64,000 nt of DNA from the NCBI GenBank assembly GCA_963816365.1, contig CAWFKG010000017.1, positions 28,415 through 92,414 on the forward strand. Direction: 5' to 3'. A program made the translations under genes and the position numbers. The first letter of the stretch is position 1; each line of letters opens with the position of its first letter. The notes beneath the pieces are model-generated. The model searched no databases, was not told where the DNA came from, and saw nothing but the letters and a program-made list of their open reading frames with translations. The DNA comes from an uncultured Bacteroidales bacterium. Lineage in GTDB: Bacteria > Bacteroidota > Bacteroidia > Bacteroidales > VadinHA17. Of the stretch, positions 1,042 through 54,101 are shown piece after piece.

Positions 1042-1068
1042 ACTAATCCAGTCAAATTGCTTATCAGA

Positions 1069-1737
1069 TTATTTCAGAAGCCTGGCAATAACTGTTTCTC
1101 CTGCATAAACCTGTTCTCCCTCCCTGACCATAATATCACAATTTCTTGGTATGATCAGATCAGCCTGCGATCCCCATCTTATTCTGCCAATAATGGCCCC
1201 ATGATCAACTGTCTCACCTTCCTTTACAGAAATTATACACCTGCGAACATAACGTGCTGCAATCTGAACAACTGCAGCTATTATTCCATCCTCCCTCTGA
1301 ATTACTATTGTATTACGCTCATTTTGAACGGTGGATTCCGGATTATTCAGGCCCAGGTATTCACCCGGTGTATGCTTAACCAGTACAACTCGTCCGTTTA
1401 TCGGAGCTCTGTTCATATGAACATCAAATAATGTCATGGCTATGCCAATAAGGTAACAGGGTTGCTCTGGAATATTTGTCTTTGTAATTTCATTAATATG
1501 TGCCAGACGGTATTTCTTTACAGAAACCGGTATTTGTCCCTTTTCAAGCTCTTTAATATAGATAATCCTTCCATCAGCAGGTGAAACAAATTCATCAGGA
1601 TCAGAGGTTATCTTCCTTTCTGGATTTCTAAAAAACCTGTAAAGGAAAAGTAGTATAAATAAACAAAATCCTATAAACGGACTAAATATCAATAACAAAA
1701 CGGTTAAGCGAAATATCGCTGTAATCATATAAAGCAA
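1069..1737 (-). CDS. phosphatidylserine decarboxylase-like pyruvoyl enzyme (small Psd/Asd type) with N-terminal membrane helices
   Basis: Intact 222-aa ORF. The C-terminal half (FDVHMNRAPINGRVV..GEYLG..RWGSQADL) resembles small PS decarboxylase proenzymes, including a G-S self-cleavage site. The N-terminus is hydrophobic. Confidence 0.6.
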   Translation of the reverse strand: MLYMITAIFRLTVLLLIFSPFIGFCLFILLFLYRFFRNPERKITSDPDEFVSPADGRIIYIKELEKGQIPVSVKKYRLAHINEITKTNIPEQPCYLIGIAMTLFDVHMNRAPINGRVVLVKHTPGEYLGLNNPESTVQNERNTIVIQREDGIIAAVVQIAARYVRRCIISVKEGETVDHGAIIGRIRWGSQADLIIPRNCDIMVREGEQVYAGETVIARLLK

Positions 1738-2134
1738 AACCGAAAATATACTGATGCATTATACCCAGCATTATATTATCGGTATAGAGGAATCGTTTGT
1801 TAAATCCTCCTTTTGATACCCAGAAAATAAATGCTGCGGTGCTGTAAAGAAAAGAGGCTAAAATAATTATGATTATTTCCATTTTTAAGTATATAAGATG
1901 ACCACGCTATCGTCTGAGCATAAGGAAAGGCAAAAGGGCAATTTCTGCAAAAGATGGCATAATATCAGTAATATCAAGTACTGCCGGGGACGGAAATTTT
2001 CTATATGATCTTAATAATTTCGCCAAAAGGATAATGTTACCCTTGACAATGCCAGCCAGACTATAAGGAATATCTGTAAGGTAGTGGATCCATTCAGAAC
2101 CAGCATTATCCTCTAAGCTGATAATCCATCTCAA
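1682..2134 (-). CDS. hypothetical membrane protein; two fragmentary ORFs that may be one frameshifted gene
   Basis: ORFs 1682..1882 and 1907..2134 are hydrophobic and show no motif I recognise. Confidence 0.2.
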
Positions 2135-3082
2135 TATTATTCAGGTAATTATAAATCATAAGAGGATAGTTGACCCCGCTCTTAATTGCCATATCAACCC
2201 AGAGCCAGGTCCTGGCATTTACTTCAATAAGCTTGTACTCATTGTCCCTTGAGTCGAGGAGAAACTCAATTTCACAGACACCTGTAAATGAAAGTCTTCT
2301 TAATAGTTTCTCTGCCAATTCGACTAATTCCGGAATATCTGTCCATCGGCTATATGTGGCTGTTCCAAACTGTAATGGATGTTCCCTCATCTTCACTCCC
2401 ATCCAGTATGATTTTATTTCACCATCAATTGAAAAAGAGGTGAAAGAGACGGCTTTGTTCTTTTCAACCGGCACTAAATTCTGAAGGTAAATATCTGAAA
2501 ACGGAACTTTGTCGAATATGGAATCCAAAATCTTTTTTAAATTTTCAGGAGCATTAACAAGCAATGCTTTCTTCCCAGTCTTTTTATAAAATGTAAGTCC
2601 GTTTTTCCCCTTAAGCAGCAAGGGGAATTTAAGTTCTGAAAGTCTGATGTCTTCAGGATTATCAGGGAACCATGAAAGAGGAACCGGAACATTTATAGAC
2701 TGGCATAGTTTTATAAGAAGCTCTTTATTGTAAATTGATTCGAGTATTTCAGGTTTCGGGGATATAATTTTATAATATTCCTGCAGCCTTTCAATATTTC
2801 CGGAAATATTATAAACAGCATGGTCATTCGAGGGCAAAAGGACCCAATCCTTTATCCCTTCATTTAATGCCAGCCTTGATCAAGAAAGTCTATAAATTCA
2901 CCCGATAAATAATCCGGACATTTAAAGAACTTTTTACAGTACCTCGAATAATGGGCCAGGCAATTATACTCACTGACTACAATTACCGGGATTCCGGCTT
3001 TCCCAAGTGCCCTGGCATTGGCCAGCCCCTGCACGTGTCCTTCGATTACTACTACTCCAGGCAAACCAGCTTCAGGTCTCAC
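2106..3082 (-). CDS. ATP-grasp domain carboxylate-amine ligase, one frameshift near 2868-2880
   Basis: ORFs 2864..3139 and 2106..2837. VVIEGHVQGLANARALGKAGIPVIVV is the N-domain and FTGVCEIEFLLD..YKLIEVNARTWLW is the ATP-grasp core. The probable GTG start at 3082 overlaps the upstream TGA (GTGA). Confidence 0.6.
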
Positions 3083-3798
3083 TGCACAAAAATTAATCTC
3101 TTGATGCCATTCTTTACTTTTTGTGTACCATATTCCCACATCCAGATAAACAAATCATCTGACCAGCGTTGAGGATGAACTGTGATCATCAATTGCTCAG
3201 GTAATTTATTGCCAGAAGCTGCTGCAAGTATATTGTCAGAATTTTTCAATCGATTCTTTTAGCCCAGAAAATTCTCCTGAAATACCTTATCGCGGACGCT
3301 TGATCTCTCTCCGTTCCATTTTCGTCCTGTATCGGTCAGATAGAGCACATTAGTAAAATCGAGATCAAAATACGGTTCAGCAATTATCCCGAAATCACGG
3401 TAAGAATAATTATTCCAAAGATCACGGTTATCCCATTTTGAAGCCGGACTGCCATGCATGCAAATTGTTTTTACCGGATAGAAAGTTCTGAAATAATCAA
3501 GATTTGATTCAAAAGTTTGAATCGCATTTTCAGGTACACCATTTGATAATGCAAGATCCTCATAATGATAGCCGATTTCATGTCCCAAGGCAGCTATTTC
3601 TTTCATTACCAATGGATTATTGCTCTCCTTAACAATCCTGAAATAATACGTCCCCCTGATCCCCTTTGAGTTTTCCAACTTTGCAGTATTCAATGAAAGC
3701 AAAGGGGACCGGTCAACATCATGTCTTAAAATCACAACTTTTTCAGCAGGATCATGCAAAAAATCTTCAAGGCTCTGAAATGAATATCCATTGCTCAA
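3079..3798 (-). CDS. polysaccharide deacetylase-like protein with an in-frame TAA at 3259-3261
   Basis: ORF 3259..3798 (ILRHDVDR..GYHYEDL..CMHGSP..DTGRKWNGERSSVRDKV) continues in the same frame after the TAA. It reads ..LMITVHPQRWSDD.. to a TGA at 3079-3081, about 240 codons in total. Confidence 0.55.
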
Positions 3799-3895
3799 CC
3801 AGACAATCCAGTATCTCTGTAAATTTCTGAATCGTAAAATCGAACTGTTTATTCATTTATAGGTATTTAACCACGGAGTTGGAGCTCATGATCAA

Positions 3896-4232
3896 CTCAC
3901 CGCCGTCCCATAGACGTCAACTTAAGGAGTTGAATATAGTAGAATGTAAAATATTGGATATAAGCCTGATACATTTCCCCTCCTTTTGAAGGAGGGGTGG
4001 CCGGACCACTTTATAATTATGTTACAAATACTGATACCGGCCGGGGTGGTTGATTGTTTATTCAATTTCCTGATCTTTTCTTTTGAAGGTTTTTCTTATC
4101 TCATTTTTTACAAATTCAGGTTCCTGGAATACTAACGCTCAGCCCCCTTCAAAAGGGAGGGGAAACTTTTTTATGCAGTATCTCATTCATCCCCCAAAGC
4201 TTAAGTTGACGACTATGGGGATGGGGGTGAGT
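3896..4232. mobile_element. gene-less deletion derivative of the DUF559 hairpin cassette found at 56730-57506
   Basis: 3942-4131 is nearly identical to 56828-57018. The outer inverted repeat is CCATAGACGTCAACTTAAG / CTTAAGTTGACGACTATGG and the inner one is TTTCCCCTCCTTTTGAAGG / CCTTCAAAAGGGAGGGGAAA. Only about the last 25 codons of the DUF559 gene remain. Confidence 0.7.
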
Positions 4233-4347
4233 ATGTAATTGGCAAAAGAAATTCACAATCTACAAGATGTGTAAAAAGGTTATTACCAGCAGGAAGGGCA
4301 ATCAAATAATTTAATTAGCCTCTGTGTTACTCCTGTGTTGAAAAAAG

Positions 4348-5730
4348 CTAAAAGGGAAGTTTTATGGATTCATCCCTTATAATGAATTTTCTTTTCCCGG
4401 AAGGAAGCAAAGGTATTTCAGCAACTATATTGATCTCAATATCAACATCTTTACCGATCAAATCATCAAGACCTTCAGCAATTGCAGCTTCAGTTACTTT
4501 ATTATACCTGTCATTTACAACCAGCAGTACTTTTACCTTATCAGGTTTGGGTTGAACAACCTGGAATTGAATAATTTCTGCAAAATATTCAAAGAAAATT
4601 GTGAACGTATGAACAATTAGGAATTTCCCTGAAGGTGTAACCAGTATGTCTGAATTTCTTCCTTTAATCTGCCTGAAAGATGCTAAATTCATTTCTGAAT
4701 TATGACTTTCTTCCGATTTTTCAATTATATCCTGTGTGTCATAACGGATAAAAGGCATAGCAAGGTTCCATAGATCAGTTGTTATATGTCTTCCGAGAGT
4801 TGCAGGCGAGTCATTGTTATCAAGCACCTCAGTAATTGCATATTCCATAGAGGCAAGGTATGCATTTGCGCTCAGGACCTTCAAAAAACTGGGCACTGGC
4901 TTCGCAGCTGTACGAATCGAAAACCGGGGCGCCAAATGCCTTTTCGATTTTTTTACGGGTATCTGGAGTAAGAATATTCCCGGTCGTATTTATTGCCTTT
5001 GGAGAATATTGTATACTATTCCCATCATTGATCAAACGTGAAAGAAAAAGCAGGGGATCAGGGTAACATCTTATAAATTCGGGTTGAGATTGATTCAGTC
5101 TTTGTATTACATCTTTCAGATTTTCCGGTGTCAGATCCCTGATAAATATGTATTGGCTACGTGTAACAAGGTCCTGGAGTTTCTTATAAAAACCTGTCCG
5201 TGGATTCTGGCTAAGCTTCGCATAGGTGTCACCAAGACTGTATCCCATCCAGTACCAGCCTCGGATAGCACAGGCATAATTCATACTATAAGCTTCAGGA
5301 GTTATGAAATAGGTAAAAGGCGCTCCGGTTGAACCGCTTGAATTAAGACGAATACGCTTTCTCGGTGAGATATTCCTTGCAATATAATAATCCTGCAGGA
5401 TGTTTACGCAGATCATTTTTTGAAATAACCGGAATTTTTTGGAGATCAGCAATTTCTTTATATCAGAAGGTACAAGATGATGTCTTCTGAAAAAGATCAT
5501 GATAGAATGGAACATTTTCATATGCATGTCTTACCAGAAATCCGTAATCGTTCTTCCTGATATGTCTTCAGCTCTTCAGCCTTCCAGTACTGGCTTTCAA
5601 GAAGGAAGTGAAGTGAATCCGGAAATGGATTGTCCGGAAAAAATATCATTTGCCGGAAGAATGATATTTTCCTGTAACCAGTTATAAGACTGCCATTATT
5701 CCCGTAAAGCTTCGAGATCATTTTGATCAA
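4348..5730 (-). CDS. phenylacetate-CoA ligase / CapK-like adenylate-forming enzyme, 2 frameshifts
   Basis: ORFs 5518..5730, 4829..5527 and 4348..4935 join into about 460 aa. The AMP-binding motif NSSGSTGAPF is present and the C-terminal domain ends PLLPSGKRKFI. Confidence 0.7.
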
Positions 5731-5759
5731 CTATTTTACTTTGCTGCGCAGCGGAGTAG

Positions 5760-6812
5760 TTATCTTTTACAGTCTGAATACCCTGCCTGAGCCATTCCGG
5801 CACGAAGGTTGTCATCACTAACACTAAGATGAATATATTTTGCGAATGATTTAATATCTCTGTAATTATTTATCAGAAAGGCATTTACTGAATGAGTGGC
5901 AGCATCGCTTACATTACCGACATTTGATATAACAGGAACACATCCGCAGGCCATGGCTTCAAGCATTGAAGTCGGAAGGCCCTCACTGCGTGAAGGCATA
6001 ACCAGAATTTTTGACCTTTGAAAATAGGATTCCGTATCATCTATGTGACCTGTAAAGACAACGTTTTCAGAAAGACCGAGCATCCTTGCCTGATCAATAC
6101 AGTATTTATAAAGATAGCCATCCCCTATAAAACAAGCCTTTAAAAGATGGGAAATCCTTTTTTAACAGAGTTAGCATCTGCAGTACTTTGTCGGGACCTT
6201 TAAGCTTGCGAAAGGTACCTACAAACAGAACATCAATATCTTTTAATGTGGATGAATTAAAATAAAACTTCGCCAGGTTTATGGCGCCGTTATAAACCAA
6301 TACTTTTGAAGATAAGAATGTTATGGTCAGTCAGATAGCTATTTACAATGCTCCCTTTTGTGGTTATCAGGTCGGTATTCCTTTAATGCCCATAAATTCA
6401 GCCGTTTCAGAAACCATCTGAAACGGCTGTATGTTTCAATTTCCACAATACCCCCAATAAGTGAAAGAATGCATTTTGAACCGGTTAACCTGGCAGCCAT
6501 CAGACTATTAATTCCTTTCGGTATCAGATGATAGCCGTTTATTATATCAGGTCGTATTTTATAGGCATGGTAAATCAGTTGAACAGGTTCCGCAATGAGT
6601 CTTACAAATCTGGACAGGAACCGTGGTTTTATATTCAATATCCAACCAGGCAGGGTAATGTATACTGTTTTTGGAAGCGGAAGTGCTTCCTTTTCCCTGA
6701 AAATGTAAATACGGCTTACTGAAGGATTAATTGTAAAAGGTTCAGCTTTTGAGTAAGTAAGAGATTTGCCCATCCTTCCGACAACCAGGAAACAGATTAA
6801 TTCTTTTTCCAC
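5760..6812 (-). CDS. glycosyltransferase family 4, two compensating frameshifts
   Basis: ORFs 6339..6812, 6106..6300 and 5760..6083. The C-terminal motif is SRSEGLPTSMLEAMACGCVPV (E-x7-E). Confidence 0.7.
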
Positions 6813-7890
6813 AAAGATCCGGATTTAATCTTTATGTTACTAAATAAATATTCTTTCGATTGAGGACTTAATTTGAATATATTCCTGAAAAGATATAACT
6901 TCATGTGGAGCCTTGCATACAGTCTTTGTTTTCTGCATTCATGCAAATATGTTTTCTGATAAAGCTCGCGCGGACCGGCCTGAATCAGGTTCCATTTTTT
7001 ATCCCTGCCTGCATTGTCAGATAATACTTCCTGAGTTATTGAATAATCTTGGGTGAAATCGGGTTGTATCCTGAACTTTTTTACCTGATAATCAATTGAT
7101 TTGTCTTCATTAAGAACCAGATCAACGTACATCCCATTTCTGACATTTTTTGACCAGAACATATCAAAAAGAAAATTCCCAAGGCTGTAAATAATAATTC
7201 CTCCATGATAGTTTTCAACCGGTTGAACAACATGCGGATGATGACCAATAATAATGTTTACTCCATTGTCAATAAGCTCATGGGCAAGATCGACCTGTGC
7301 TGGAGAGGGCCAGGTTACATATTCATTACCCCAGTGGAAACTGAATATAATAAAATCCGGTGATTGTGTTTTAATTTCGTCCAGGGTGTTAAAAAGTATG
7401 TCTCGATCCATGGGAGCGATCAAGTTGCATTCCGGATGATCATTGATCGCATTAAAAGCTGCAAATGCTATTTTCCTGTCTTTGCTTCTGATAATGGCTA
7501 TTTTGGAAATACTTTCCTGTCTCGAGCCTATATGTGATGAATCCATTATCTCTCCAAAGAGTTTATAGTTGAATCAGAACCCTCCCTGCCATGATCGGGC
7601 ATATGGTTATTTGCAATGGAAACAACTGAAATGTTAAGGATCTTCATTAGACGCAGAACTTCAGGATTTCCTTCAAATGGCTTTTTAACAATATTGGGCT
7701 TTATCAGGGGAGCTTCAAGATTACAGAAAACTATATCTGAATTACAAAACGGATTGTTCTTGTTATCGGAATAATATTCAATCAGCCTCGTCATATTACT
7801 TCCAATCCCATTCCCCATTGTATAAGCAGTATCAGCAGGCAATATATCACCTATACATGAAATTCTTATAGACCCCATATATCTAAGCAA
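6797..7890 (-). CDS. CapA/PgsA-type (PGA_cap) metallophosphatase-fold capsule synthesis protein, one frameshift at ~7546
   Basis: ORFs 7546..7890 (SIANNHMPDHGREG) and 6797..7546 (FSFHWGNEY..IIGHHPHVVQP..IIYSLGNF). Confidence 0.7.
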
Positions 7891-31710: not shown

Positions 31711-32699
31711 ATGAAAGACTTGTTGTTATTATTATGTCAATATCCATTTAAGGAACACAATCTTGACTTATTATCAAAGCTTCTCGATAAAGTTGAGGAT
31801 TGGCATAAGCTTGTTGAGCTGATAAACGCCCACGGCATAATTGCACTCGCTGCATATAATATTAAAGAATCAGGACTGGAAAGGAATGTTCCGAAGGACT
31901 CGATGGCAATTCTGGAAAACGGACTTATGAAGAGCATTGTCCGGAACACCTGGCTGACAGAACGCTGGAAAGAGGTAAATGATTTACTTTGTGAAGCGAA
32001 CATTAAACATATTCTGCTGAAAGGCATGGCACTTGAACATACCCTTTACGGATCAAGAGGTTTGCGTCAGATGAACGACAATGATATTCTGATAAAACCC
32101 GGAGAATCTGTCAGAGCCTGGGAACTGCTTCAAAGGAATGGCTTTATGCCAGAACCTGTTAAATCTCCCCTATTCAAAAAAATAATACTTAATTTCGGAC
32201 AGCACCTTCCGGCATTATATAAAAACGGTTATGCTCTTGAGATTCATTCTACTTTATTTGATCGACAGTAATCCGGATCGTAGAAAATTATGAAGATCCC
32301 TTTTCGGATGCTGTTGAAATAACCATAAAGAATAAAAAGGTTTTAATACTCTCAAAGGAGATGCAAAGTAAATATCTTTTGCACCATTTTGAACACCATA
32401 CTTTTTCAGGTGATTGTCAGTTACGTTTGTATACTGATATTAAACTGCTCGATGATTCAAGTCTTCTTAAGTTCCCTGACCGGTTTATATCAGAACCGTT
32501 GCAGGGTACTAAGAAAGAATATCGAAAACCCACGTACAAAGCCAGAATTCGTACTATCGAACCAAAATACCGCTTAAGATTCCTGATAGGTGATACCTTC
32601 CCTACAATGAAGTGGATGAAAGAACGTTATAAGTGCAGTATGATTAGGGTATTGCTGATGTATCCACTTAGAATCGGGAAACTCAGGTGGTTATTTTAA
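31711..32699 (+). CDS. uncharacterised nucleotidyltransferase family protein (PF14907-like), one frameshift at ~32270-32360
   Basis: ORFs 31711..32271 (ILLKGMALEHTLYGSRGLRQMNDNDILIKPGE..WELLQRNGF) and 32361..32699. Confidence 0.65.
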
Positions 32700-36784: not shown

Positions 36785-39158
36785 ATGAAAAACCGGGTAA
36801 TTTCAATTTTAATTCTATTTATTATCGGCATAAGAATAAGCGCCCAGTCTTCGGAAACTATATACCAGGGTTCGGTTATCAAGGCCGGGCCTGTCGATGA
36901 TGCCGCATATGGGCCATTTAACATAGGATTTAATTTTACCTATTTTGGAAACTCTTATAGTCAGTTTTATGTCAGTACAAATGGTCTGGTATTATTCTCA
37001 GCTGATCCTGCAAATATTTCCTTCATTTCAAATGCAATTCCTGATCCTGCAGCACCGAATAACTTCATAGCTGCTTTCTGGGATGATCTTACTATTGACG
37101 GTACCGGATCAATTTTGTATTCAACTATAGGTGCAGCTCCGAACAGAAAACTGATAATCCAGTTCAGGAATATGGGATTTCATCGTTTTCCTGCCTTCAT
37201 GGGAACTTTTGCAGTCATTCTTCATGAAACATCGAACATAATACAGGTCCAGTACCGAATAATAGTTGATAACACCTCATCAATAGCCCATGGTAAAAAT
37301 GCTGCAATAGGAATTGAGAACGCAGACGGGACAGCAGGAGTTCAGTATGCTTATCATGACTCTACTGCCGTTGCAACCGGCAAGGCTTTATCATATACTC
37401 CTTCAGGTGCATCCTATACCTTAAACACAGATGCTATCTATGATGGTATATATCTCACAACTAATGTAACACTGCCTGAACCAGGAATTCCAATACTCTT
37501 AAGTCCGCCTCAGGATGCTATTATTGGCACTGATTATACTTTTTCATGGGCAGATGCAGGGAATGCTGCTTCATATGCATTACTGATCTCCAATTCACCC
37601 GACCTGGCCGGAGCATCATTTTATTCTGCAGGGACAGCCACATCATTTGAAGTTACAGGTCTCACTCTTGACACAACTTTATATTGGGGCGTTTTTGCCA
37701 CTAATGCCACCGGAACTACCTGGTGTGAGATAAAAAGGTTTACGACAAGTGCCACTCCTCCACTCGCTGCAGTTCCTCAGATAATCTGGGTAGGACAGAA
37801 CCAGGATAAGAAGATCAAACTGGAGTATACTGGAGGAGACGCCTCTGCTAAAAGTGCAATTATCACATCTCTGCCTGCCGAGGGACAACTTTATCAGTAT
37901 TATGGGGGTACAAGAGGCAGCCTAATAACCTCTGTTCCAACAAATGTCTCTGATATAAATAGAAATATCATATATGCTGCAACCGGTAACACTGGTAACT
38001 CTGCTGGCAATTTTAATTTTAAAATCAGCGACAACGGTGGAAGTTCTCCTGAAGCAACAGTTACAATTAATGTCAGTTCTCCTGAAAGTCCCAATGTATT
38101 GTACACTTCAAAAAGTACAAATGTGGAAATTCAGTTCGATATACAAATGGCTGACCCGACAGGTAAACAGAATCAGTTTATTGTGACTGTGGATGGAAAT
38201 CGTGCAGCAATAAGCTCAGCTGGCCTGAAAGACGGAGATCCTCGCACCTTTGTGCTTACTCTGGCAACACCTCTTACCGGAACAGAAACTGTGCTTGTAT
38301 CATATACACAAGGAGATATAACCGGATCAACCGGAGGAATTCTGGTCTCATTTACAGATCAGGCAGTTACACTAAAGTCACAGACTATCAATTTCCCGGT
38401 TATCCCTGATAAACTAATTGGGGACCCACCATTCAATCCGGGGGCGACAGCATCCAGTCTGCTTGGAATAACATATTCAAGCTCAAATCTTTCTGTTGCA
38501 ACTTCCCTGGGAAGTAATATTACTATTCTGTCAGTTGGAACCTCTGATATTACTGCGCTTCAGGCAGGAAATGGAACCTATGCTCCGGCCAGATATACCA
38601 GGACATTAACAGTGAATCCGTTAACCAAGTTAAATCAGACAATAACCTTTGGAGCCCTTCCCAGTAAAATTACCGGAGATGCAGACTTCTTTCTTACGGC
38701 AACAGCCAGCTCAGGCTTAAGCATAGCTTATACAAGTGATAATCCATCTGTTGCAACTGTAACAGGAAACATGGTTCATATTGTTGGCACCGGATCGAGC
38801 AGTAATTACCGCATCCCAGGCAGGAGATATTATTTATAATGCAGCTGCAGATGTACCACAAACTCTTGTTGTCAATCTGTCGACAGGTTTAGAGGATAAC
38901 ACATTATCCCGAAGTAATTTCAATATTTATTCAGCAGGTGGGCTGATTAATATACAGCCACTTACTGATGATTGGAATGGGAAAAAAGGTACTGTAAAAA
39001 TCTTCAATACTACCGGACAAACAGTAAGCATTTTACAGGGAATGGAGTTTCAAAAGAATTCATTAATACAGGTTGATGCTCCCGCGCAGCAGGGGATTTA
39101 TATTATTGAACTAAAGTCCGGAGTAAGACGATATGTTGCAAAGGTGATAATTCGTTAA
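36785..39158 (+). CDS. T9SS-secreted large surface protein (Ig-like/FN3-like repeats), one frameshift at ~38800
   Basis: Signal peptide MKNRVISILILFIIGIRISAQ. ORFs 36785..38839 and 38781..39158. The C-terminus QGIYIIELKSGVRRYVAKVIIR is a T9SS sorting domain. Confidence 0.8.
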
Positions 39159-39214: not shown

Positions 39215-39766
39215 TTAAACCTTCTTCAGAAAGCTCATCGGTATCTTCAGTATAAGATTCTGATCAAGCTTGTCAATCCTGACCACAACACGGTTTTTGC
39301 TGCCAATTTTAATTAGTTCGCCTGTCAGGCCGATGAGAGAGCCATTTATTACCTCAACATTATCACCCTGCTCGAATTTTTCGGACGAGACTTCTATTTC
39401 AGCATCACTGTTTATAAGAAGACGAAGGTTATCGATTTGGTTCTGCGGAATTGAGACAGGTTGCCCCTCGAAGGAGACAAATTTTACCACACCGATGATC
39501 TTATAGACCCGGGGAAAATGCTTCTTTTTGGTTTTTACAAATATGTATGACGAGAGCAGTGGTTTTTCAACAAGCTTCTTACGGTCGCTCCACATCCTGT
39601 AGGTCTTCTGAAGCGGGAGAAAGGTTTCAATACCTTCCTCAACGAGTCGTTGAAATACCTGCTTCTCAGCTCTTGGACGTGTATATAGGGCATACCATTT
39701 TTCTTCAGAGATACCGGGAGTAATAATTATTTCTTCCTCCGAGAATATGTTGTTGTGGCCGTTCAT
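39215..39766 (-). CDS. UpxY-family (NusG-like, KOW) transcription antiterminator
   Basis: Intact 183-aa ORF with WYALYTRPRAEKQVFQRLVEEGIETFLPL..SSYIFVK and a C-terminal KOW-like GDNVEVINGSLIGLTGELI. Confidence 0.8.
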   Translation of the reverse strand: MNGHNNIFSEEEIIITPGISEEKWYALYTRPRAEKQVFQRLVEEGIETFLPLQKTYRMWSDRKKLVEKPLLSSYIFVKTKKKHFPRVYKIIGVVKFVSFEGQPVSIPQNQIDNLRLLINSDAEIEVSSEKFEQGDNVEVINGSLIGLTGELIKIGSKNRVVVRIDKLDQNLILKIPMSFLKKV

Positions 39767-39788
39767 TATTGTCTATTGAAAACGGTTT

Positions 39789-39796
39789 CAAAGATA
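39789..39796 (-). promoter_or_regulatory. candidate Bacteroidota -7 box TATCTTTG for the UpxY gene
   Basis: It matches the TAnnTTTG consensus and lies 22 nt upstream of the ATG at 39766. Confidence 0.4.
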
Positions 39797-39819
39797 ATTT
39801 TTTTTAAGTTAAATGTTCA

Positions 39820-40366
39820 TTTCTTTTGCTTGCCCAAAAGAACCTAGCAGAAAGTAAAGGCCCGGATTGCAAATCCGCGCCAGCGTCTGCGAGTCAATTG
39901 CCCACGCATTACCTACGTCCGACGAAGTCGGCGAGTTCTCCGCCTGTCGGCGGATCGGTGTCTTCTTATCTAAATCCATGTCACTTTCTTTTTCTTGATA
40001 AAAAGAAAGTAACCAAAGAAAAATCAAGGCTGCAGATAATTTTGGGGCTCCCGTTTTGAGGTTTGCCCACGCAATACAACTCGTCGTCCTGCGTCCTCCT
40101 CAAACAGTATTGCTTACTAAAAGCCACCGCAACAAACCTCAAAACTGTCGCTTTCCCTACAGGCTTGCTCCTTCGCTAAAATTGCCTGCCGGCAATTTCT
40201 TAACGCTCAGCCCTCCCAAAATTCTCTGAGGCCGTCTAAATTCCAATTAACACTCAATATCTCAGTAAATATTCTAAGTTATGGCGCGAGGGAAAGGCGG
40301 AAATGGTGCGAACTTCAGACAAAAGGGTAGCGCCAATAAGGCCAGTGTAGCGGGCGCCCGTTTTGA
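39820..40366 (+). ncRNA. candidate structured RNA or cluster of stem-loops in a GC-enriched intergenic tract; class unknown
   Basis: At least 8 short perfect stem-loops, nested 13-bp (40053-40065 / 40133-40145) and 7-bp (40071-40077 / 40107-40113) helices, and a terminator-like CGGGCGCCCG+TTTT at 40351-40364. The strand assignment is tentative. Confidence 0.3.
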
Positions 40367-40476
40367 AATGAACAAATTAATCAAAATTTAGATTTGAACC
40401 TCTCCATCAATCAAATTAAAATAGATTGCAACCCTGTTAGAAACACCAAATGATCATTTAAAGAACAAATAATTTT

Positions 40477-40484
40477 ATATTTGT
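40477..40484 (+). promoter_or_regulatory. candidate -7 box TATATTTG for the wzi-like gene
   Basis: It matches TAnnTTTG and lies 16 nt upstream of the ATG at 40501. Confidence 0.4.
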
Positions 40485-40500
40485 CAATAAATGACCTGAG

Positions 40501-42173
40501 ATGTCTGACCTGAGAAAAAAACTCTTCCTGTTTTGTATTGTAAGTATAATTGTACTGAATACAAATCTGCTTAGCCAGGAGGTTCCGCAATCAGTGAGCA
40601 ATACCGGGATCTACGAATTCCTTGATGAACTGGCAAACAACCATATAATATCAATCAATTCAGCTGTAAAACCTTACTCGCGGTTATTCATATCAAAGCG
40701 CCTTAAAGAGGCAGAAGAGAAAAAAGATCAGCTTAATGCCAGACAGCAGAAAGAGCTCGATTTCTATCTGATGGATTTCGGGAAAGAGATTAATAATGAA
40801 TGGCTTAATGGCGCAAAGGCACAAACCACCGCAAGGCCGGGGTATGGCTCAATGGCACAAAGGAACAACGAGAGAATGGCCCTCGGAAACGGATTGATCT
40901 GTTCTATTATCAGGATTCAGTTTTCTCTTTGACAATAAATCCTGTGCTCGGAGGAGAGATATTTGGCAACTCCTCAGGCATTGCATATTATGCACGCAAC
41001 GGCGCAGAAGCACGCGGATATATTCAGAAATGGGGATTCTATGCTTCACTTGGTGATAACCATGAGAAACCACTTCTTGGATTGCCTCAATATCTCACTC
41101 CCAGGGTTAACGGTCATATAAAAGGTACTTCTGACTGGAGCGAGATGAAAGGCGGGATTACTTATTCGTGGAAATGGGGAAATGCAGGACTGGTAAAAGA
41201 TAATCAGCAATGGGGAAACAATTACAACGGAGCAAATATATTCGGAGGAAATAATCCGACATTTGTCCAGTTAAGGCTTCATATCTCTCCGGTAAAATGG
41301 TTTGATTTCAATTATTTCCATGGCTGGCTAAATTCTATGGTCGTTGACAGTGCCCATTCCTTCTGGGTTACAAATAGTTATGGTACCAGTTACCGGAGGG
41401 TATATCATAAAAAGTTCATAGCTGCCAATATGTTCACATTCACCCCTTTTAAATATCTTAACATATCGGCGGGAAACAGTATTGTTTATGATAATGATAA
41501 TGCCAATCCGGCCTATCTGATACCACTTTTCTTTTACAAGTCGGTCGATCATTCCTTAACTTACGGCATTACCAACATGAACTCACAGATGTTTTTTGAC
41601 ATCAGCTCACGACAGATAAAAAACACTCATATTTATGCCACTTTGTTCGTTGATGAACTGTCAGTGAGCCGTTTCACTGAAAAAGATCAATGGAACTTCT
41701 TAAGCTACAAAGCCGGATTCAGATTAGATGATCTTCCATTTCCCAACCTTTCATTCACAACTGAGTTCACATATACTTATCCTTTGACATATCAACATAA
41801 TGTGCCTACTCTTACATTTGAGAATGCAGGATATAACCTGGGATATTATCTGAAGGATAACTCCAGGGAATGGTACGTTGCATTTGATTACCGTCCTTTC
41901 AGAACTCTGGATCTAAATCTCTGCTTTATTGATGCAATACGTGGTCCGGATTATACGGAACTTGGTGTATACCGAATTGGTAATCCGCCGTTGGTTTCAG
42001 TTCAATGGCATAATACATCATACGGAATTAAAGCTTCTTACCAGGTTATAAATGATCTTTATACCTGGTTCTCATTTACAGCAGGCAATATAACAGGCGA
42101 TGCAAGATGGAGTCCGGAATATTTTTTCGGAAAAAAGAATACTGTGAATCTGGGTGTTACTTTTGGGTTTTAA
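40501..42173 (+). CDS. capsule assembly Wzi-family outer-membrane protein, one frameshift at ~40887
   Basis: ORFs 40501..40932 and 40929..42173. The frame is restored by lengthening AAA at 40887-40889 (..RMALGKRIDLFYYQDSVFSLTINPVLGG..). The C-terminal region is beta-barrel-like. Confidence 0.65.
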
Positions 42174-42190: not shown

Positions 42191-42890
42191 TCTTTTCTTT
42201 GCCCCCCTGCCCGAGAAGTTAAATCTCTGTTTATCCTTTTGCCCCCCTGCCCCCCTAAAGGGGGGTTCGTACTCGTTATTTAAGTGAGTTTTGTATATTT
42301 GAAATATTGCTGCATTATTAATGAAAACAGTAATATCTAAAATTACTATGTATTATGGAGCGGATTCCGCGACATTAAGACACCCATATACTTAGAAGGA
42401 GTATGACTAAAGATGAAGGGGTACTATGGAAAAAGTTAAAGGACAGAAATGTATTTAGCAGTAAAATTTAGAAGACAACATCCTGTTTATAATTTCATTG
42501 TTGATTTTTATTGTCATGAATATAAGCTTGTCATAGAAGTTGATGGAGATATTCATAATGATGAAATTGCATACCAGTATGATTTGGGCAGAACTAAAGT
42601 GCTTAACAATTTTGGATTGAAAGTAATCCGATTTACAAATGATCAGATACTTTATAGTTTAGATTCTGTAATAGAGGAAATCCAAAGAGAAGTTGCGAAT
42701 CGAACTCCCCTTAGGGGGGCAGGGGGGCAAAAAAGAGATGAGCATAATAAAATTGGGCAGGGGGGCAAAAAAGAGATGAGTATAATAGAGTTGGGCAGGG
42801 GCAGAGATGAGCATAATAAAATTGGGCAGGAGGGCAAAAAGAGATGGCATTAGGATAATAATGCTGGGCAGGGACAAAAATAACAGAATG
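42191..42890. mobile_element. hairpin-bounded cassette with DUF559 cargo; arms are inverted arrays of a ~38-bp unit
   Basis: The left side has 2 units ending TTTTGCCCCCCTGCCCCCCTAAAGGGGGG (42191-42266). The right side has 5 units, GGGCAGGGGGGCAAAAAAGAGATGAGCATAATAAAATT and variants, starting at 42717, 42755, 42793, 42824 and 42866. Confidence 0.7.
42348..42853 (+). CDS. DUF559 (Vsr-like endonuclease fold) protein, 2 N-terminal frameshifts, C-terminus reads into the repeat arm
   Basis: ORF 42449..42853 (FRRQHPVYNFIVDFYCHEYKLVIEVDGDIH..LKVIRFTNDQI) parallels the intact copy at 56944..57327. Upstream frames give MYYGADSATLR.. and ..MTKDEGVLWKKLKDR. Confidence 0.65.
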
Positions 42891-49642: not shown

Positions 49643-52600
49643 ATGGGGAAACGGTTTCCTGAATATAAAGGTCTTGATCTTTCGAAGGTAAATAAGGAGA
49701 TTCTCAGAATATGGGATGAGAATGATACTTTCAACAGAAGTGTACGTGAACTGAACGGAAAAGGTGAGTTTGTATTCTATGAAGGACCGCCTTCAGCAAA
49801 CGGAATACCTGGAATTCATCACGTGATGGCACGTACGATCAAGGATGCAATCTGCCGTTTCAAAACCCAGTGCGGTTATGAAGTGAAACGCAAGGCAGGA
49901 TGGGATACCCATGGACTGCCGGTTGAGCTTGGCGTCGAAACAGCTCTTGGCATCACAAAGGAAGATATCGGAAATAAAGCTTCTCCTAAATATATTTCTG
50001 TTGAAGATTACAACAAGGAATGCCGTAAGGCTGTAATGAAATACACCGATCTCTGGGAAGACCTTACCAGGAAAATGGGATACTGGGTTAATATGGATCA
50101 TCCGTATGTGACTTACGATAACCGTTATATCGAAACACTCTGGTGGCTGCTCCAGCAACTCTATAAAAATGGTCATCTCTACAAGGGTTATACAATACAA
50201 CCATATTCCCCGGCAGCAGGCACCGGACTTAAGCTCCCATGAACTTAACCTGCCCGGCTGCTACCGCGATGTAAAGGATACCACCTGCATAGCACTGTTT
50301 AAGCTTACCAGAGATAAAAAATCGGAATTCCTTTATAATAAGATAGATACTGCCGATGTACATATGATGGCCTGGACAACAACTCCATGGACACTTCCAT
50401 CAAATACTGCACTGGCAGTAGGAAAAGAGATAATTTATATAAAAGTCCGGAGCTTCAATCCTTATTCCGGTGAACCAATCACAGTAATAATAGCTAAAGA
50501 TCTTCTCAATTCATTGTTTCCTGCATCGAATGCAGGTCTTGACTTCACCGAATATAAACCCGGTGATAAAAAGATCCCGTTCAGAGTTTCAGGGGAATTC
50601 ACCGGAGCGGAGCTTGAAGGCATAAATTATGAACAGCTTATCGACTGGATGAATCCGGGGGAAGGTGCATTCAGGGTACTGACCGGTGATTTTGTCACAA
50701 CTGAAGACGGTACCGGGATTGTTCATATTGCTCCTACCTTTGGTGCAGACGACTACAAGGTAGCAAACGAAAATGGGGTACCTCCTCTTCTTGTTAAAAG
50801 AAAGGACGGCTCCTTTGGACCTATGGTTGATAAAAGAGGCTACATGGTCCCGATTGCAGATCTTGATGAGACTTTTGTTAAGAATAATGTCAACAAAAAA
50901 ACTTATGCTGCGTTCGAAGCTCATCCGGTAAAAAATGAATATGATGATAATATTCCTGCCGATGCAGATACGATCGATGTTGAAATAGCAGTGATGCTTA
51001 AGCAACAGGGTAAGGTTTTCAGGATCGAGAAGCAGATACACAGCTACCCTCATTGCTGGAGAACAGATAAACCTGTTCTCTACTATCCTCTCGATGCATG
51101 GTTCATACGTACAACAGCATTCCGCGACCGTATGATTGAACTTAATAATACCATAAACTGGAAACCACAATCCACAGGTTCCGGAAGGTTTGGTAAGTGG
51201 CTTGAAAATCTTGTTGACTGGAACCTTTCACGTTCACGTTACTGGGGAACTCCTCTTCCGATATGGATCACTGAAGACAAAAAAGAGGAAAAATGCATTG
51301 GCTCCGCTTCTGAACTAAAAGCTGAGATTGAAAAATCGATCAAAGCAGGATTCATGAAGCAAGAATCCTCTTGCAGAATTTACAGCAGGAGATAATTCAC
51401 CTGAAAATTACGAACATTTCGATCTGCACCGTCCGTTCGTTGATGAAATTATCCTTGTCAGTGATACGGGAAAGAAAATGTTCCGCGAAGCAGATCTGAT
51501 TGATGGCTGGTTCGATTCAGGAGCGATGCCCTATGCCCAGGTTCATTATCCTTTTGAGAATAAGGACAATTTCAGTGAAATGTTCCCGGCTGATTATGTT
51601 GCAGAAGGTGTCGACCAGACAAGAGGCTGGTTTTTCACTCTTCATGCCATAGCAACCATGATCTCAGACTCAGTTGCTTTCAGAAACATTATTTCAAACG
51701 GACTCGTTCTTGATAAGAACGGAAATAAAATGTCGAAAAGACTTGGTAACGCCGTCGATGCATATTCTGCAATTGAGGAAAATGGTCAGTGATCCTTTGC
51801 GCTGGTACATGATTACCAACTCCCAGCCCTGGGATAATCTTAAGTTCGACATTACAGGAGTGGATGAAGTAAAACGTAAATTTTTCGGTACTTTATACAA
51901 TACCTATTCCTTCTTTTCTCTCTACGCAAATGTTGATAATTTCAGATATGCAGAAAAGGAGATCCCGGTCAATGAGAGACCCGAAATAGACCGCTGGATA
52001 ATCTCGCTTCTTAACTCACTTGTTAAAGAGGTTAGCGGTTGTTATAATGATTATGATCTGACCCGGGCCGGACGTGCAATACAGGATTTTGTAACCGAGA
52101 ACCTGAGCAACTGGTATGTACGCCTCAACAGGAAACGGTACTGGGGCGGCGATTATGACAAGGATAAACTTGCTGCTTACCAGACCCTTTATGTATGTCT
52201 TGAGACAGTCAGCCAGCTTGCAGCTCCAATCGCTCCGTTTTATATGGATCGTCTTTTCTGCTGATCTTAATGATGTGACCGGCAGACATAAGGATAATTC
52301 TGTTCACCTGGTTCTTGTTTCCCGAATATGATGAATCACTTATCGATAAGGCTCTTGAGGAAAGAATGGAGATTGCCCAGAAAATATCTTCAATGATACT
52401 TGGATTGAGGAGGAAAGTAAGCATTAAAGTCCGCCAGCCGCTGGCCAGGATAATGGTCCCGGTTCCTGATAACAACTTCAGGGAGAAATTTGAAGCAGTA
52501 AAAGATCTGATACTTGCTGAAGTCAATGTCAAAGAAGTCGAATATATCGATGACACTTCCTCAATTCTTGTCAAGAAAATAAAACCTAATTTCAAAACGC

Positions 52601-53158: not shown

Positions 53159-54098
<940 letters not shown>

Positions 54099-54101
<3 letters not shown>

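Follow-up and report, generated by a model that had tools for sequence, protein, structure and literature searches.

Among the systems described so far, those closest to the elements reported here include the REP/BIME/REPIN repeats that occur with RAYT (TnpA_REP) transposases, including the 'atypical secondary structures' that flank the Bacteroidetes RAYT subclass 2.6 (PMC6006769, PMC3733652), the canonical REP hairpin having a stem of 7-20 bp (PMC6006769). A second group comprises the MITEs and modular repeats, such as Correia/NEMIS, RUP, ERIC and the BOX A-B-C elements of Streptococcus pneumoniae (reviewed in PMC2229807, PMC10969869), and on the RNA side the ENE/MALAT1-type 3′-end triple helices and the H-type pseudoknots with major-groove U.A-U triples, for example in telomerase RNA (PMC7583470), bear comparison as well. 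The PATEs derived from IS200/IS605 and the invertible promoters of Bacteroides capsule loci are two further comparators. In IS200/IS605, both end hairpins function on the same (top) strand.

The tract studied here lies between the divergent UpxY and wzi-like genes in a 64,000-nucleotide stretch of DNA from an uncultured Bacteroidales bacterium (the window). We propose that it is probably a nest of non-coding interspersed repeats, namely MITE/REP-like elements that are non-autonomous and fold in single-stranded form. Every hairpin, nested helix and duplicate listed in the initial annotation was found in the sequence, with two shifts of one nucleotide: the second TTGCCCACGCAWTAC copy begins at 40063 rather than 40062, the first being correctly placed, and the second TAnnTTTG box lies at 40476-83 instead of 40477-84, the first box being exact. 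The confirmed features are as follows.

39820-40366, as first described: intergenic tract between the divergent UpxY and wzi-like genes
39823-28/39835-40: CTTTTG/CAAAAG stem
39863-77: hairpin CGGATTGCAAATCCG
39919-31: hairpin CCGACGAAGTCGG
39940-53: hairpin CCGCCTGTCGGCGG
39980-93/40000-13: 14-nt stem, 93%
40181-96: hairpin ATTGCCTGCCGGCAAT
40053-65/40133-45: 13-bp perfect helix
40071-77/40107-13: GCAATAC/GTATTGC helix
39898 and 40063: duplicate TTGCCCACGCAWTAC, chance expectation 0.11
40351-64: CGGGCGCCCG followed by TTTT
39789-96, minus strand: TAnnTTTG box, kept in relatives
40476-83, plus strand according to the initial annotation: TAnnTTTG box, kept in relatives

The GC enrichment described earlier was borne out and is mild (0.445-0.485 over 39800-40300 vs 0.33-0.40 in the flanks), and the MFE z-scores against shuffles, -2.18 for the plus and -2.49 for the minus strand, place the structure of the whole tract modestly above chance. 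The scan for intrinsic terminators (GC-rich hairpin plus T run) gave 0 sites in 39500-40700 vs 0.9 expected, the terminator and sigma-70 scans, both uninformative, found no conserved promoter or terminator in the tract, and 39978-40373 holds no TAnnTTTG box, the spacer at 40251-40280 having none on either strand. In line with the initial annotation, neither UpxY nor the wzi-like gene has the tract as its leader; the supposed 'near-consensus box' TTCTTTTG belongs to the conserved hairpin arm GTTCATTTCTTTTG, and CGGGCGCCCG+TTTT is a type-1 hairpin apex joined to its remnant arm. The direct repeats D1 and D5 share a spacing of 165 nt, which is absent from the initial annotation and results from two successive repeat units; a tandem array was rejected, as three aligned 165-nt 'units' gave patchy similarity only and two successive elements are present instead. 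BLAST, pattern and profile searches found no other copy of the tract in the remaining window, and an exact-protein look-up of the window's UpxY and wzi-like ORFs returned no record.

Region 39978-40373 is shown to be one copy of a recurrent composite of ~400 nt, wherein a type-2 unit (~215 nt) faces a type-1 unit (~155 nt) in convergent orientation, and this copy is shown to have been modified later, having gained a 58-nt mini-element and being without ~190 nt that are found in the related locus L001. Region 39815-39977 proved to be an older copy, broken by a mini-element and deletions, and each unit proved to be an imperfect hairpin of considerable length, in which the internal loops are conserved and which ends in an AT-rich hairpin of 13-14 bp. 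The parts are listed below.

39815..39842, plus: decayed terminal hairpin module (GTTCATTTCTTTTG, loop CTTGCC, then CAAAAGAA), 3′ arm cut after GAA
39843..39897, plus: piece of a 'CCGAGC-type' mini-element with the CGGATTGCAAATCCG hairpin, sitting in the 3′ arm of the preceding hairpin
39898..39977, plus: decayed type-2 remainder, containing TTGCCCACGCATTAC from the core as well as the short GC hairpins CCGAC-GAA-GTCGG and CCGCC-TGTC-GGCGG
39978..40250, minus (better-folding strand; the element's own reading is left to right on plus): complete type-2 unit
39980-40013: type-2 terminal hairpin
40014-40023: type-2 A-rich linker CAAAGAAAAA
40023-28: ATCAAG, complement of the hairpin loop CTTGAT at 39994-99
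40028-46/40215-33, 40053-65/40133-45 and 40071-77/40107-13: type-2 nested helices
AACTCG...CTCAAACAG: type-2 conserved internal loop
40156..40213, plus: 'module C', a 58-nt secondary insertion within the type-2 unit (CCCTACAGG...GCTCAGCC, hairpin ATTGCC-TGCC-GGCAAT)
40251..40280, no strand: variable AT-rich spacer between the composite's two units
40281..40373, plus (better-folding strand): type-1 unit in reverse orientation

On the left, 39815-39877 corresponds to positions 1-65 of the type-1 profile (nhmmer, E=8.9e-7; E=3.8e-6 with the type-2 profile), and the module at 39815..39842 matches the family hairpin of at least 120 genome loci. The adjoining mini-element fragment has 85% identity to L001 1537-1590, and in L001 the same CCGAGC-type mini-element breaks a type-1 unit at G^AAA. 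Further right, TTGCCCACGCATTAC is the invariant core of type 2, CCGCC...GGCGGATCG is similar to the variable apical hairpins of type-2 copies, and 39913-40020 is 98% identical to L001 2128-2021 and 97% to L003. The complete type-2 unit has full-length matches in ~20 loci at 82-88% identity (E down to 9e-74). Module C interrupts none of the other type-2 copies aligned in A3 and A5, where GCTTT is directly followed by CTCCCAAAA, and is present in L001; independent copies lie inside the L112 type-1 unit and in L072, L083, L024, L055 and L038, and an inverted one upstream of UpxY in L001-L003. The composite spacer differs in length and sequence between copies (alignment A3). Beyond it, 40281-40365 makes up the 3′ ~55% of a type-1 unit, after which GAAATGAAC (40365-73) forms the final arm of the terminal hairpin; 40281..40373 matches type-1 profile positions 69-154 (nhmmer, E=6.5e-14), and the pattern GAAGTTCGCRCCATTTCCGG has one match in the window vs 0.00 expected. 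The L001 copy, 99% identical, runs on after 40364 with the ~190 nt absent from the window, which are canonical sequence plus two mini-element insertions. The 'graveyard of decayed hairpin arms' once envisaged here comes nearer than a single RNA but falls short: 39815-39977 is truly decayed, but 39978-40373, which makes up most of the tract, is a recognizable family member whose helices are maintained by compensatory changes.

Among relatives, the intergenic region measures 281-288 nt in nine orthologous UpxY/wzi-like loci vs 734 nt in the window, and these nine loci keep both promoters and both genes without any units. A hairpin occurs at the place equivalent to 39815..39842, at a distance of 39-125 nt from the start of UpxY, in L011, L064, L146, L222 and L244, and L007 retains a remnant, GTTCACTTCTTTTGC. 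In at least five further lineages, type-1/type-2 composites occupy the same intergenic region and begin within this range of distances; an UpxY homologue was present in 21 of the 241 loci retrieved via the elements, the chance expectation being roughly estimated at ~1%; and the window and L001 share 98-99% identity over the tract vs 85-90% over the flanking genes. Recurrent occupancy in several lineages could reflect a local function, and these three observations would suit an element specific to the polysaccharide locus, with a regulatory or insulating role, that is kept between the divergent promoters of UpxY and the wzi-like gene. We regard such an element as improbable, since the nine ~281-nt loci retain promoters and genes with zero units, unit content, order and orientation vary between lineages at the UpxY locus, identical unit types recur at many unrelated positions and in further phyla, and both TAnnTTTG boxes are outside the tract. 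The position upstream of an UpxY/polysaccharide locus, the flanking inverted hairpin modules and a composite order relative to UpxY opposite to that of other lineages also recall the invertible promoter segments (invertons) of Bacteroides capsule loci; however, the composite has no internal TAnnTTTG promoter, each 'inverted repeat' is itself palindromic, hundreds of copies sit at unrelated sites, also in phyla without such systems, and a Pfam scan of nine tract-flanking ORFs found no recombinase, so that an inverton is very improbable.

The units were found in many genomes and metagenomes outside the source genome. The exact hairpin occurs at at least 120 genome loci, several per MAG, and in isolates that include Chitinilyticum, Chitiniphilus, Maribacter and Luteimonas, and the type-2 core in at least 120 metagenome stretches; the matches extend to isolates of Fusobacteriota and Betaproteobacteria. 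The AT-rich hairpin of 34 nt has one and the same sequence in Bacteroidota, Betaproteobacteria and MAGs assigned to other phyla, Fusobacteriota carry a close GTTAC variant with the same layout in multiple copies, and the remainder of each unit follows the host base composition. Plasmid collections gave matches in Ilyobacter, Chondrinema and Aureibacter only, none of them annotated, with 19 places on the Ilyobacter polytropus plasmid pILYOP01, and phage collections gave no match. Cultivable carriers include Ilyobacter polytropus DSM 2926 and Chitinilyticum litopenaei DSM 21440. At the gathering score, Rfam 15 had no match in the 64-kb window; an E-value scan of the tract returned chance hairpin matches only (E>=1.4), 14 loci with canonical copies yielded one tRNA only, and for two canonical composites searched at E up to 10 all matches were far below the family gathering scores, the best being mir-753, a microRNA precursor (E=0.014, 24 bits vs a cut-off of 62), while the Bacteroides sRNA model BTnc231 scored 13 bits vs a cut-off of 80. 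A literature search on four element sequences and on MITE/REP in Bacteroidetes found no description of the family, and it appears to be undescribed so far.

Each unit ends in GTTCATTTCTTTTG-loop-CAAAAGAAATGAAC, or a GTTAC variant thereof, followed by CAAAGAAAA and then the loop complement; the composite is bounded by inverted hairpin-plus-linker modules, and in single units the module occupies just one of the ends. Type-1 units have a constant length of 152-158 nt, with 96.3% of cells paired vs 85.6% in shuffles and 37-60% with partners slid, a covariation score of 0.263 vs 0.083 shuffled (reached in 0/500 shuffles) and both-side changes in 16 pairs. For type 2, RNAalifold predicted 46 pairs, 15 of them with compensatory changes. 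The loop-flank helix is 91.5% paired, with both-side changes in 3 of 4 pairs, and a three-way covariation joins a stem C:G pair with a linker G (59/19/2/0, Fisher p=1.8e-16, uncorrected for relatedness), which is also compatible with the linker pairing to the 5′ arm instead. With RNA and DNA parameters alike, 47/47 type-1 and 109/110 type-2 copies have the reverse strand as the more stable one. Forward-strand mismatches are A.C and pyrimidine-pyrimidine, which become G.T and purine-purine on the other strand. Type-2 mismatches were counted at Watson-Crick consensus positions only, since raw G.T vs A.C counts are dominated by one conserved U.G and the conserved internal loops, and the 110 copies were aligned arm by arm from anchors, as nested insertions defeat plain MAFFT alignment. 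A reading of the composite on one strand was discarded, type 2 and type 1 folding best on opposite strands.

These properties do not fit the single structured RNA of ~530 nt first suggested for the tract, which is missing from most orthologous UpxY/wzi-like intergenic regions (~281 nt), is a mosaic whose every unit recurs alone at many unrelated sites, contains two main units that fold better on opposite DNA strands, and has no conserved promoter or terminator. The overlapping ORFs of 53-77 codons exist (39809-40027 minus, 39826-40059 plus, 40056-40229 plus and 39981-40142 minus), and that they encode small proteins is hardly credible, as all start with TTG, indels and compensatory changes between unit copies ignore any reading frame, and the units occur in both orientations and with insertions. 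A leader peptide or small ORF (ATGAACCAAAGAAAAGGAGGCCGGAAATGA, with the SD-like GGAGG) was likewise rejected, its ATG and GGAGG being swapped for covarying alternatives in many copies.

A more serious alternative, which we still consider rather unlikely, is that the units are genes or cis-acting modules for small structured RNAs, read on the G-rich strand, a reading that places the AT hairpin module at the 3′ end. There the U-rich linker, hairpin and loop-complement would form a pseudoknot or a U.A-U/C+.G-C triple helix guarding or defining the 3′ end, and the two RNAs of a composite would be transcribed divergently from the spacer. The strong covariation, the constant unit length, the loop-flank pairing and the three-way covariation speak for such RNAs, as do a better-folding strand that is G-rich, like known structured RNAs, the internal loops AACTCG...CTCARACA and the hairpin, kept across phyla despite helix drift, and the type-1 linker, in which UUUUCUUU lies in parallel register with the purine strand AAAAGAAA. 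However, no conserved promoter motif precedes either unit, the spacer is variable in sequence and length, and the terminator scan found no site; orientation relative to neighbouring genes is random (52 vs 47), so that read-through would yield the 'right' strand in no more than half of the cases; the copies show nesting, truncation and interruption, as expected of selfish DNA; Rfam gave no match, Bacteroides sRNA models included; and the sole frequent G-U of the loop-flank helix falls on the opposite strand.

The distribution of insertions is consistent with the interspersed, non-autonomous repeats that we favour. L001 and L002 contain a 57-nt mini-element that the window lacks, the sequence being otherwise 98-99% identical. 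All three CCGAGC-type insertions (3/3) lie at G^AAA and read GAA[...]AAA vs GAAA at the empty site, the 'AA' being either duplicated or element-owned, and module C, found in differing host units, allows a duplication of 1 nt at most. Units lie within the 3′ arm of another hairpin or immediately past a terminator-like one. Their random orientation towards neighbouring genes and the lack of a conserved promoter or terminator show no tie to gene expression. No clear target-site duplication was seen beyond the ambiguous 'AA', and whole type-1 or type-2 units yielded no clean pair of empty and filled sites. In 1.6 Mb of retrieved loci, no autonomous parent element was found by ORF clustering, by a search for inverted hairpin pairs or with an HUH-Y1 motif: the 1082 ORFs of 120 loci contain no enriched transposase, the enriched neighbours having housekeeping or polysaccharide functions, no gene lies within an inverted hairpin pair, and the motif scan gave one truncated IS200-like TnpA only, in L211.

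We infer that the units move as non-autonomous DNA of the MITE/REP type, and that the folding strand of a unit would always be the one with the AT hairpin at its 3′ end. Insertion may be preferred beside or within existing hairpins, which would build nests in long permissive intergenic regions, such as the heads of polysaccharide loci, where the copies would then decay. Our leading conjecture for the mover is an HUH/RAYT-like transposase that would be specific for single strands and act in trans.

With REP/REPIN, the units share short, non-coding, palindromic intergenic units in many copies and clustered mosaics, inverted pairs, one favoured strand, a structure kept while the sequence drifts and, presumably, recognition as single-stranded hairpins; the type-1 apex on the better-folding strand, GTAGCGCC...GTAGCGGGCG, bears two GTAGCG motifs beside a short GC stem (CGCC/GGCG). 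However, that stem has 4-5 bp vs the canonical 7-20 bp and offers a mere candidate for the GT[AG]G tag that REP elements have 0-2 nt 5′ of a GC-rich hairpin of 20-65 nt, the units measure 155-215 nt vs 20-65 nt, their conserved end consists of an AT-rich hairpin of 14 bp whose loop is complementary to the flank, the doublet pairs two different unit types, and no RAYT gene lies near any copy in the 1.6 Mb of retrieved loci. Like MITEs, the elements are small (100-400 nt), non-coding, multi-copy, dispersed in intergenic regions in either orientation, modular, nested or truncated, and folded into long hairpins, and the composite has terminal inverted repeats. They differ in having no demonstrable target-site duplication and, in the retrieved 1.6 Mb, no cognate transposase or parent IS with the same ends, in a terminal 34-nt hairpin that is identical across phyla, and in internal helices far more compensatory than simple terminal inverted repeats need. 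The cross-phylum identity of that hairpin, the conserved loops and the loop-flank covariation exceed what MITE ends typically need and would fit a functional RNA too. PATEs resemble the present family in subterminal hairpins, single-strand polarity and a short specific insertion motif (here G^AAA of the mini-elements) without obvious duplication, but the composite's two units fold best on opposite strands, and no TnpA or TnpB is associated with them.

The order on the better-folding strand, namely closing stem, U-rich, turn, U-rich, closing stem, A-rich, also resembles that of ENE-type elements, with UUUUCUUU parallel to AAAAGAAA and a lone C/G position that covaries across all three strands, although the triplex is here predicted purely from sequence and the same covariation fits linker-5′ arm pairing. 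To our knowledge, an ENE-like triplex in a bacterial repeat element has no precedent. As a speculative and, in our estimate, unlikely extension, the units may form a cross-phylum class of strand-specific structured RNA or ssDNA intermediates, whose 3′-terminal module, in the proposed order closing stem, UUUUCUUU, turn, UUUCUUUU, loop and AAAAGAAA, would be either a pseudoknot with a pyrimidine-motif triplex or a recognition structure for single-strand transposition. If true, it would represent a bacterial counterpart of the ENE/MALAT1-type 3′-end triplexes, carried by a repeat element.

In conclusion, hairpin-rich long intergenic tracts of Bacteroidales, especially at the heads of polysaccharide loci, should be screened against the present family before novel RNAs are proposed. 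The cross-phylum hairpin identity, the loop-flank pairing and the linker-stem covariation are unusual among bacterial small repeats and are signatures of specific molecular recognition, which may be exerted by a transposase or by RNA tertiary folding, a question made directly testable by the cultivable carriers.

The hairpin-rich tract between the divergent UpxY and wzi-like genes (39815-40373) is a nest whose members belong to a cross-phylum, apparently undescribed family of structured interspersed repeats, and not the single novel RNA gene proposed in the initial annotation. All features listed there were located in the window, with coordinates exact or off by one base; the GC enrichment is mild (0.445-0.485 against 0.33-0.40 in the adjoining AT-rich flanks), and the GC skew of the tract is negative on the plus strand. 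Its folding beats that of dinucleotide shuffles (z = -2.18 for the plus and -2.49 for the minus strand), and the common spacing of 165 nt of the direct repeats D1 and D5 gave the first hint at repeated units. The suggested Rfam comparison assigned the tract to no family: at the gathering threshold nothing in the entire window matched, the tract gave chance hairpin matches only, and no family matched the canonical copies of the repeats. None of four element sequences occurred in any paper of the literature searched.

All copies share the order A-X-A'-B-X', in which A and A' form an AT-rich stem of 13-14 bp, X is a 6-nt loop, B is the linker CAAAGAAAA, and X' is the reverse complement of X (pairs seen include CTCCTC/GGAGG, CTTGCC/GGCAG, CGCGGC/GGCCGC, CTTGCA/GTGCA and CTTGAT/ATCAAG). 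The type-1 unit (47 distinct copies, alignment A4) has a steady length of 152-158 nt and continues after X' into a long hairpin composed of CCGGAAA(T/A)G, an asymmetric internal loop, a variable stem of ~17 bp and a conserved apex. In the type-2 unit (about 215 nt, alignments A3 and A5), three nested helices enclose a conserved internal loop, AACTCG-(variable hairpin)-CTCARACAG, which is recognisable too in the proteobacterial, Thermotoga-MAG and Ilyobacter copies. A type-1 unit lies next to type 2, convergent and at most 330 nt away, for 45 of 110 distinct type-2 copies, and the resulting composite of ~400 nt, with inverted hairpin modules at its borders, is seen again in about 20 loci at 82-88% identity. 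The tract and its flanking genes decompose as follows, where mini-elements are short secondary insertions and L001, L003 and the like denote loci fetched from metagenomes or genomes.

39215-39766, minus strand: NusG/UpxY-type gene flanking the tract
39815-39842: hairpin module, whose 3' arm stops at CAAAAGAA, where a CCGAGC-type mini-element fragment interrupts it
39843-39897: CCGAGC-type mini-element fragment, 85% identical to the insertions in L001
39898-39912: type-2 core fragment
39913-39977: short GC hairpins, common to L001 and L003
39978-40250: complete type-2 unit, with its hairpin at 39980-40013 and B at 40014-40023
40023-40028: X' (ATCAAG) of this type-2 unit, complementary to the loop CTTGAT at 39994-39999
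40156-40213: 58-nt insertion (module C), missing in the other type-2 copies of A3 and A5
40251-40280: variable spacer
40281-40365, reverse orientation: 3' ~55% of a type-1 unit (profile E=6.5e-14)
40365-40373: GAAATGAAC, fused directly to the partial type-1 unit
40501-40932 + 40929-42173: wzi-like gene, split in the window and one 550-aa ORF in relatives

By this decomposition, the previously noted hairpins are of several kinds, some being stems or apices of elements and others belonging to mini-elements, and the nested 13-bp and 7-bp helices are the middle and inner stems of the type-2 unit. A scan found no terminator-like site in the tract, and CGGGCGCCCG+TTTT was rejected as a terminator, being the type-1 apex fused to a leftover arm. 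The L001 copy, 99% identical, carries ~190 nt extra at the 40365 junction, namely the missing type-1 sequence and two mini-element insertions. The 58-nt insertion occurs independently elsewhere, for example within the type-1 unit of L112. A separate module C copy, 85% identical to window 40155-40213 and oriented opposite to the window copy, lies ~100 nt upstream of UpxY in L001 (3837-3896), L002 (284-343) and L003 (1747-1806).

Several genes of the window are split or truncated (40501-42173; 49643-52264; 53340-54101; 31711-32271; 36785-39158): the wzi-like gene (40501-42173) encodes 143 + 414 aa where relatives have 550 aa, IleS (49643-52264) is spread over at least three ORFs, the epimerase gene begins at profile position 74, NTP_transf_5 has 186 aa against 389 aa in homologues, and the gene of a T9SS-sorted protein is broken at 38781-38839. 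This suggests indel errors of long-read assembly or widespread pseudogenisation, and short homopolymer differences in the tract are therefore read with caution. Genes for a 23S rRNA-intervening-sequence protein (PF05635; 36220-36585) and a DUF559 endonuclease-like protein (42449-42853) flank or interrupt the polysaccharide locus, and are found there again in relatives L007-L013.

UpxY homologues with 80-95% identity are frequent in metagenomes, and contigs were fetched for three of them. Judged from these sequences, the tract is an insertion relative to most relatives: in nine loci (L004-L010, L012-L013) the UpxY/wzi-like pair is divergent with an intergenic region of just 281-288 nt, and the two TAnnTTTG boxes are retained. 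Between window 39913-40365 and L001 the identity is 98-99%, against 90% for the UpxY gene and 85% for the wzi-like gene, and an ATPase gene separates the tract from UpxY in that locus. L002 carries pieces of the tract in opposite orientation, downstream of a different gene, and the intergenic region of L011 (1.1 kb) holds several partial copies in both orientations; no further tract copy was found within the 64-kb window. The 372-aa ATPase_2 (PF01637) gene adjoins UpxY at varying positions (L001 2295-3413, L003 205-1323, L004 5208-6326, L005 3664-4782), between tract and UpxY in L001 and downstream in L004 and L005, and behaves like a movable cassette. The 'empty' intergenic regions of the nine loci (e.g. 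L007 3720-4000) contain a different repeat with CACAGAG/CTCTGTG motifs (...GTTACACAGAGGTTCACAGAGGAGACACAGAGGGCCACAGAG...), which may be another structured repeat family. L006 (ERZ28658979 scaffold_381) is a near-perfect palindrome at 136-6989, centred between two UpxY copies with HicA, HepT/NTP_transf_2 and 23S_rRNA_IVP mirrored, probably an assembly artefact.

The intact form of the first hairpin of the window, GTTCATTTCTTTTG-N6-CAAAAGAAATGAAC, is present in L011 and L001, and an exact-pattern scan for it over one genome per GTDB species matched at least 120 stretches; a scan of metagenomes for the type-2 core likewise matched at least 120. Among the hairpin matches listed, Bacteroidales MAGs are the majority, often with several per MAG, and the isolates include Maribacter, Chitinilyticum litopenaei DSM 21440, C. 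piscinae, Chitiniphilus eburneus, Chitinolyticbacter albus and Luteimonas. The hairpin was further matched in MAGs labelled Thermotoga, Dehalococcoidia, Desulfobacterales, Piscirickettsiaceae and Clostridia, where the short contigs may be binning errors. In a plasmid collection, pILYOP01 of Ilyobacter polytropus (Fusobacteriota) has a composite of ~440 nt whose ends are the same, and the element occurs at 19 places of this plasmid, none annotated. Since the flanks in Chitinilyticum are not the same from one species to another and there is a second, partial copy close by, the copies there are repeats and not a single conserved locus. In GC-rich Proteobacteria, the AT-rich hairpin is set inside a longer GC-rich palindrome, e.g. 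GGCCGGGCGGGCCG-hairpin-CGGCCCGCCCGGC (L028 3545-3660, L093 6320-6390, L124 4730-4800; Chitiniphilus, Luteimonas and, for L124, one further locus), with the same 28 conserved bases in another context and without the B linker.

The alignments argue that the unit structure is under selection, on one strand. Type-1 pair cells hold standard pairs in 96.3% of cases (column shuffles 85.6%, slid partners 37-60%), with a covariation score of 0.263 against 0.083 shuffled (0/500 shuffles as high) and 0.035-0.054 slid, and both-side changes at 16 pairs; in the X:X' helix 91.5% of cells are paired and 3/4 pairs show double changes, and type 2 has compensatory changes at 15 pairs. G-U intermediates are scarce on the A-first strand: mismatches in the type-1 distal stem are A.C (41) and pyrimidine-pyrimidine, not G.T (5) (kinship ignored; at least 9 A.C against 2-3 G.T in events judged independent by eye), and Watson-Crick consensus positions of type 2 have 35 A.C against 14 G.T and 54 YY against 24 RR (kinship ignored). 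As these are tolerated G.T and purine-purine on the complement, it is the complementary strand, with the AT hairpin at its 3' end, that has the more stable fold, in 47/47 copies of type 1 and 109/110 of type 2 (kinship ignored). RNA parameters put the mean difference at -6.7 (type 1) and -10.2 (type 2) kcal/mol, DNA parameters at -4.3 and -3.4 kcal/mol. In the composite, the favoured strands of both units are opposite and diverge from the spacer.

Besides X:X', linker B covaries with the stem: stems with a single internal C:G pair have B = AAAGAAAA (59 copies), and pure T:A stems have a pure A run (19 copies, from both the GTTAC and GTTCA hairpin classes), with 2 exceptions (Fisher p=1.8e-16, kinship ignored). 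This covariation is equally compatible with B pairing with A instead, which in type 1 leaves a bulge of one base. Triple-helix topology is established for ENE/MALAT1 and telomerase-type pseudoknots. The favoured strand reads X, UUUUCUUU, GGUUCA, UUUCUUUU, X', AAAAGAAA, and the first U-tract of type 1 mirrors the second instead of copying it, hence its register with the purine strand is parallel, as would be required for a U.A-U/C+.G-C triple helix that X:X' closes; we take this as a lead and not a result. Such a putative triplex of the terminal module would have the topology of ENE/MALAT1 or telomerase-type pseudoknots (PMC7583470).

Element copies are intergenic and randomly oriented relative to neighbouring genes, the gene at the hairpin side pointing toward the element 52 times and away 47 times. 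Many copies lie 15-20 nt past terminator-like hairpins or within the 3' arm of another element's hairpin, and CCGAGC-type mini-elements are inserted at G^AAA in 3/3 cases. A 57-nt CCGAGC-type insertion in linker B, present in L001 and L002, is missing from the otherwise 98-99% identical window copy, implying recent gain or precise loss. No transposase was found near elements among the ORFs of element-bearing loci, nor was a gene enclosed by an inverted hairpin pair, and an HUH-Y1 motif scan of 1.6 Mb of these loci returned one truncated IS200-like gene only. This gene (L211 3330-3630), a 5'-truncated TnpA (NHLH...YIKNQQEHH, the IS200-like TnpA signature of subclass 1.2; PMC6006769), adjoins a DNA methylase gene, with a CCGAGC-type mini-element about 150 nt downstream. 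ORF families enriched near elements (IleS, epimerase, DksA-like protein, UpxY, wzi-like protein, sugar transferase) in part reflect synteny with the window's own neighbourhood.

A UpxY homologue lies within the fetched DNA of 21/241 loci retrieved through elements alone (L014-L254), with the divergent wzi-like gene in 10 of these 21, which looks like enrichment at the head of polysaccharide loci. The UpxY/wzi-like intergenic region holds a type-1(+)/type-2(-) composite in at least five lineages (L011; L064/L177/L226; L146; L222; L244), beginning 39-125 nt from the UpxY start, the place of the window's decayed hairpin at 39815; the unit order in the window is opposite. Together with a remnant, GTTCACTTCTTTTGC, left at the composite-start position near UpxY in the 'empty' L007 type, this indicates a site long occupied with heavy turnover. 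The site could be a permissive sink or have a local function, and the former is favoured by the nine relatives without units.

The kinds closest to this family are bacterial MITEs and the REP/BIME/REPIN elements that go with RAYT transposases. Among the latter, the 'atypical secondary structures' at the flanks of Bacteroidetes RAYT subclass 2.6 (Quentin et al.; PMC6006769, PMC3733652) may or may not belong to this family. The family fails or leaves open the target-site duplication and parent IS of MITEs, the size and GTAG-footed GC stem of canonical REPs, and the same-strand ends of IS200/IS605 derivatives. A transcribed RNA family is an unlikely reading, and local regulatory readings of the tract retain a small residual probability; we consider that the family is probably non-autonomous mobile DNA working via a folded single strand.
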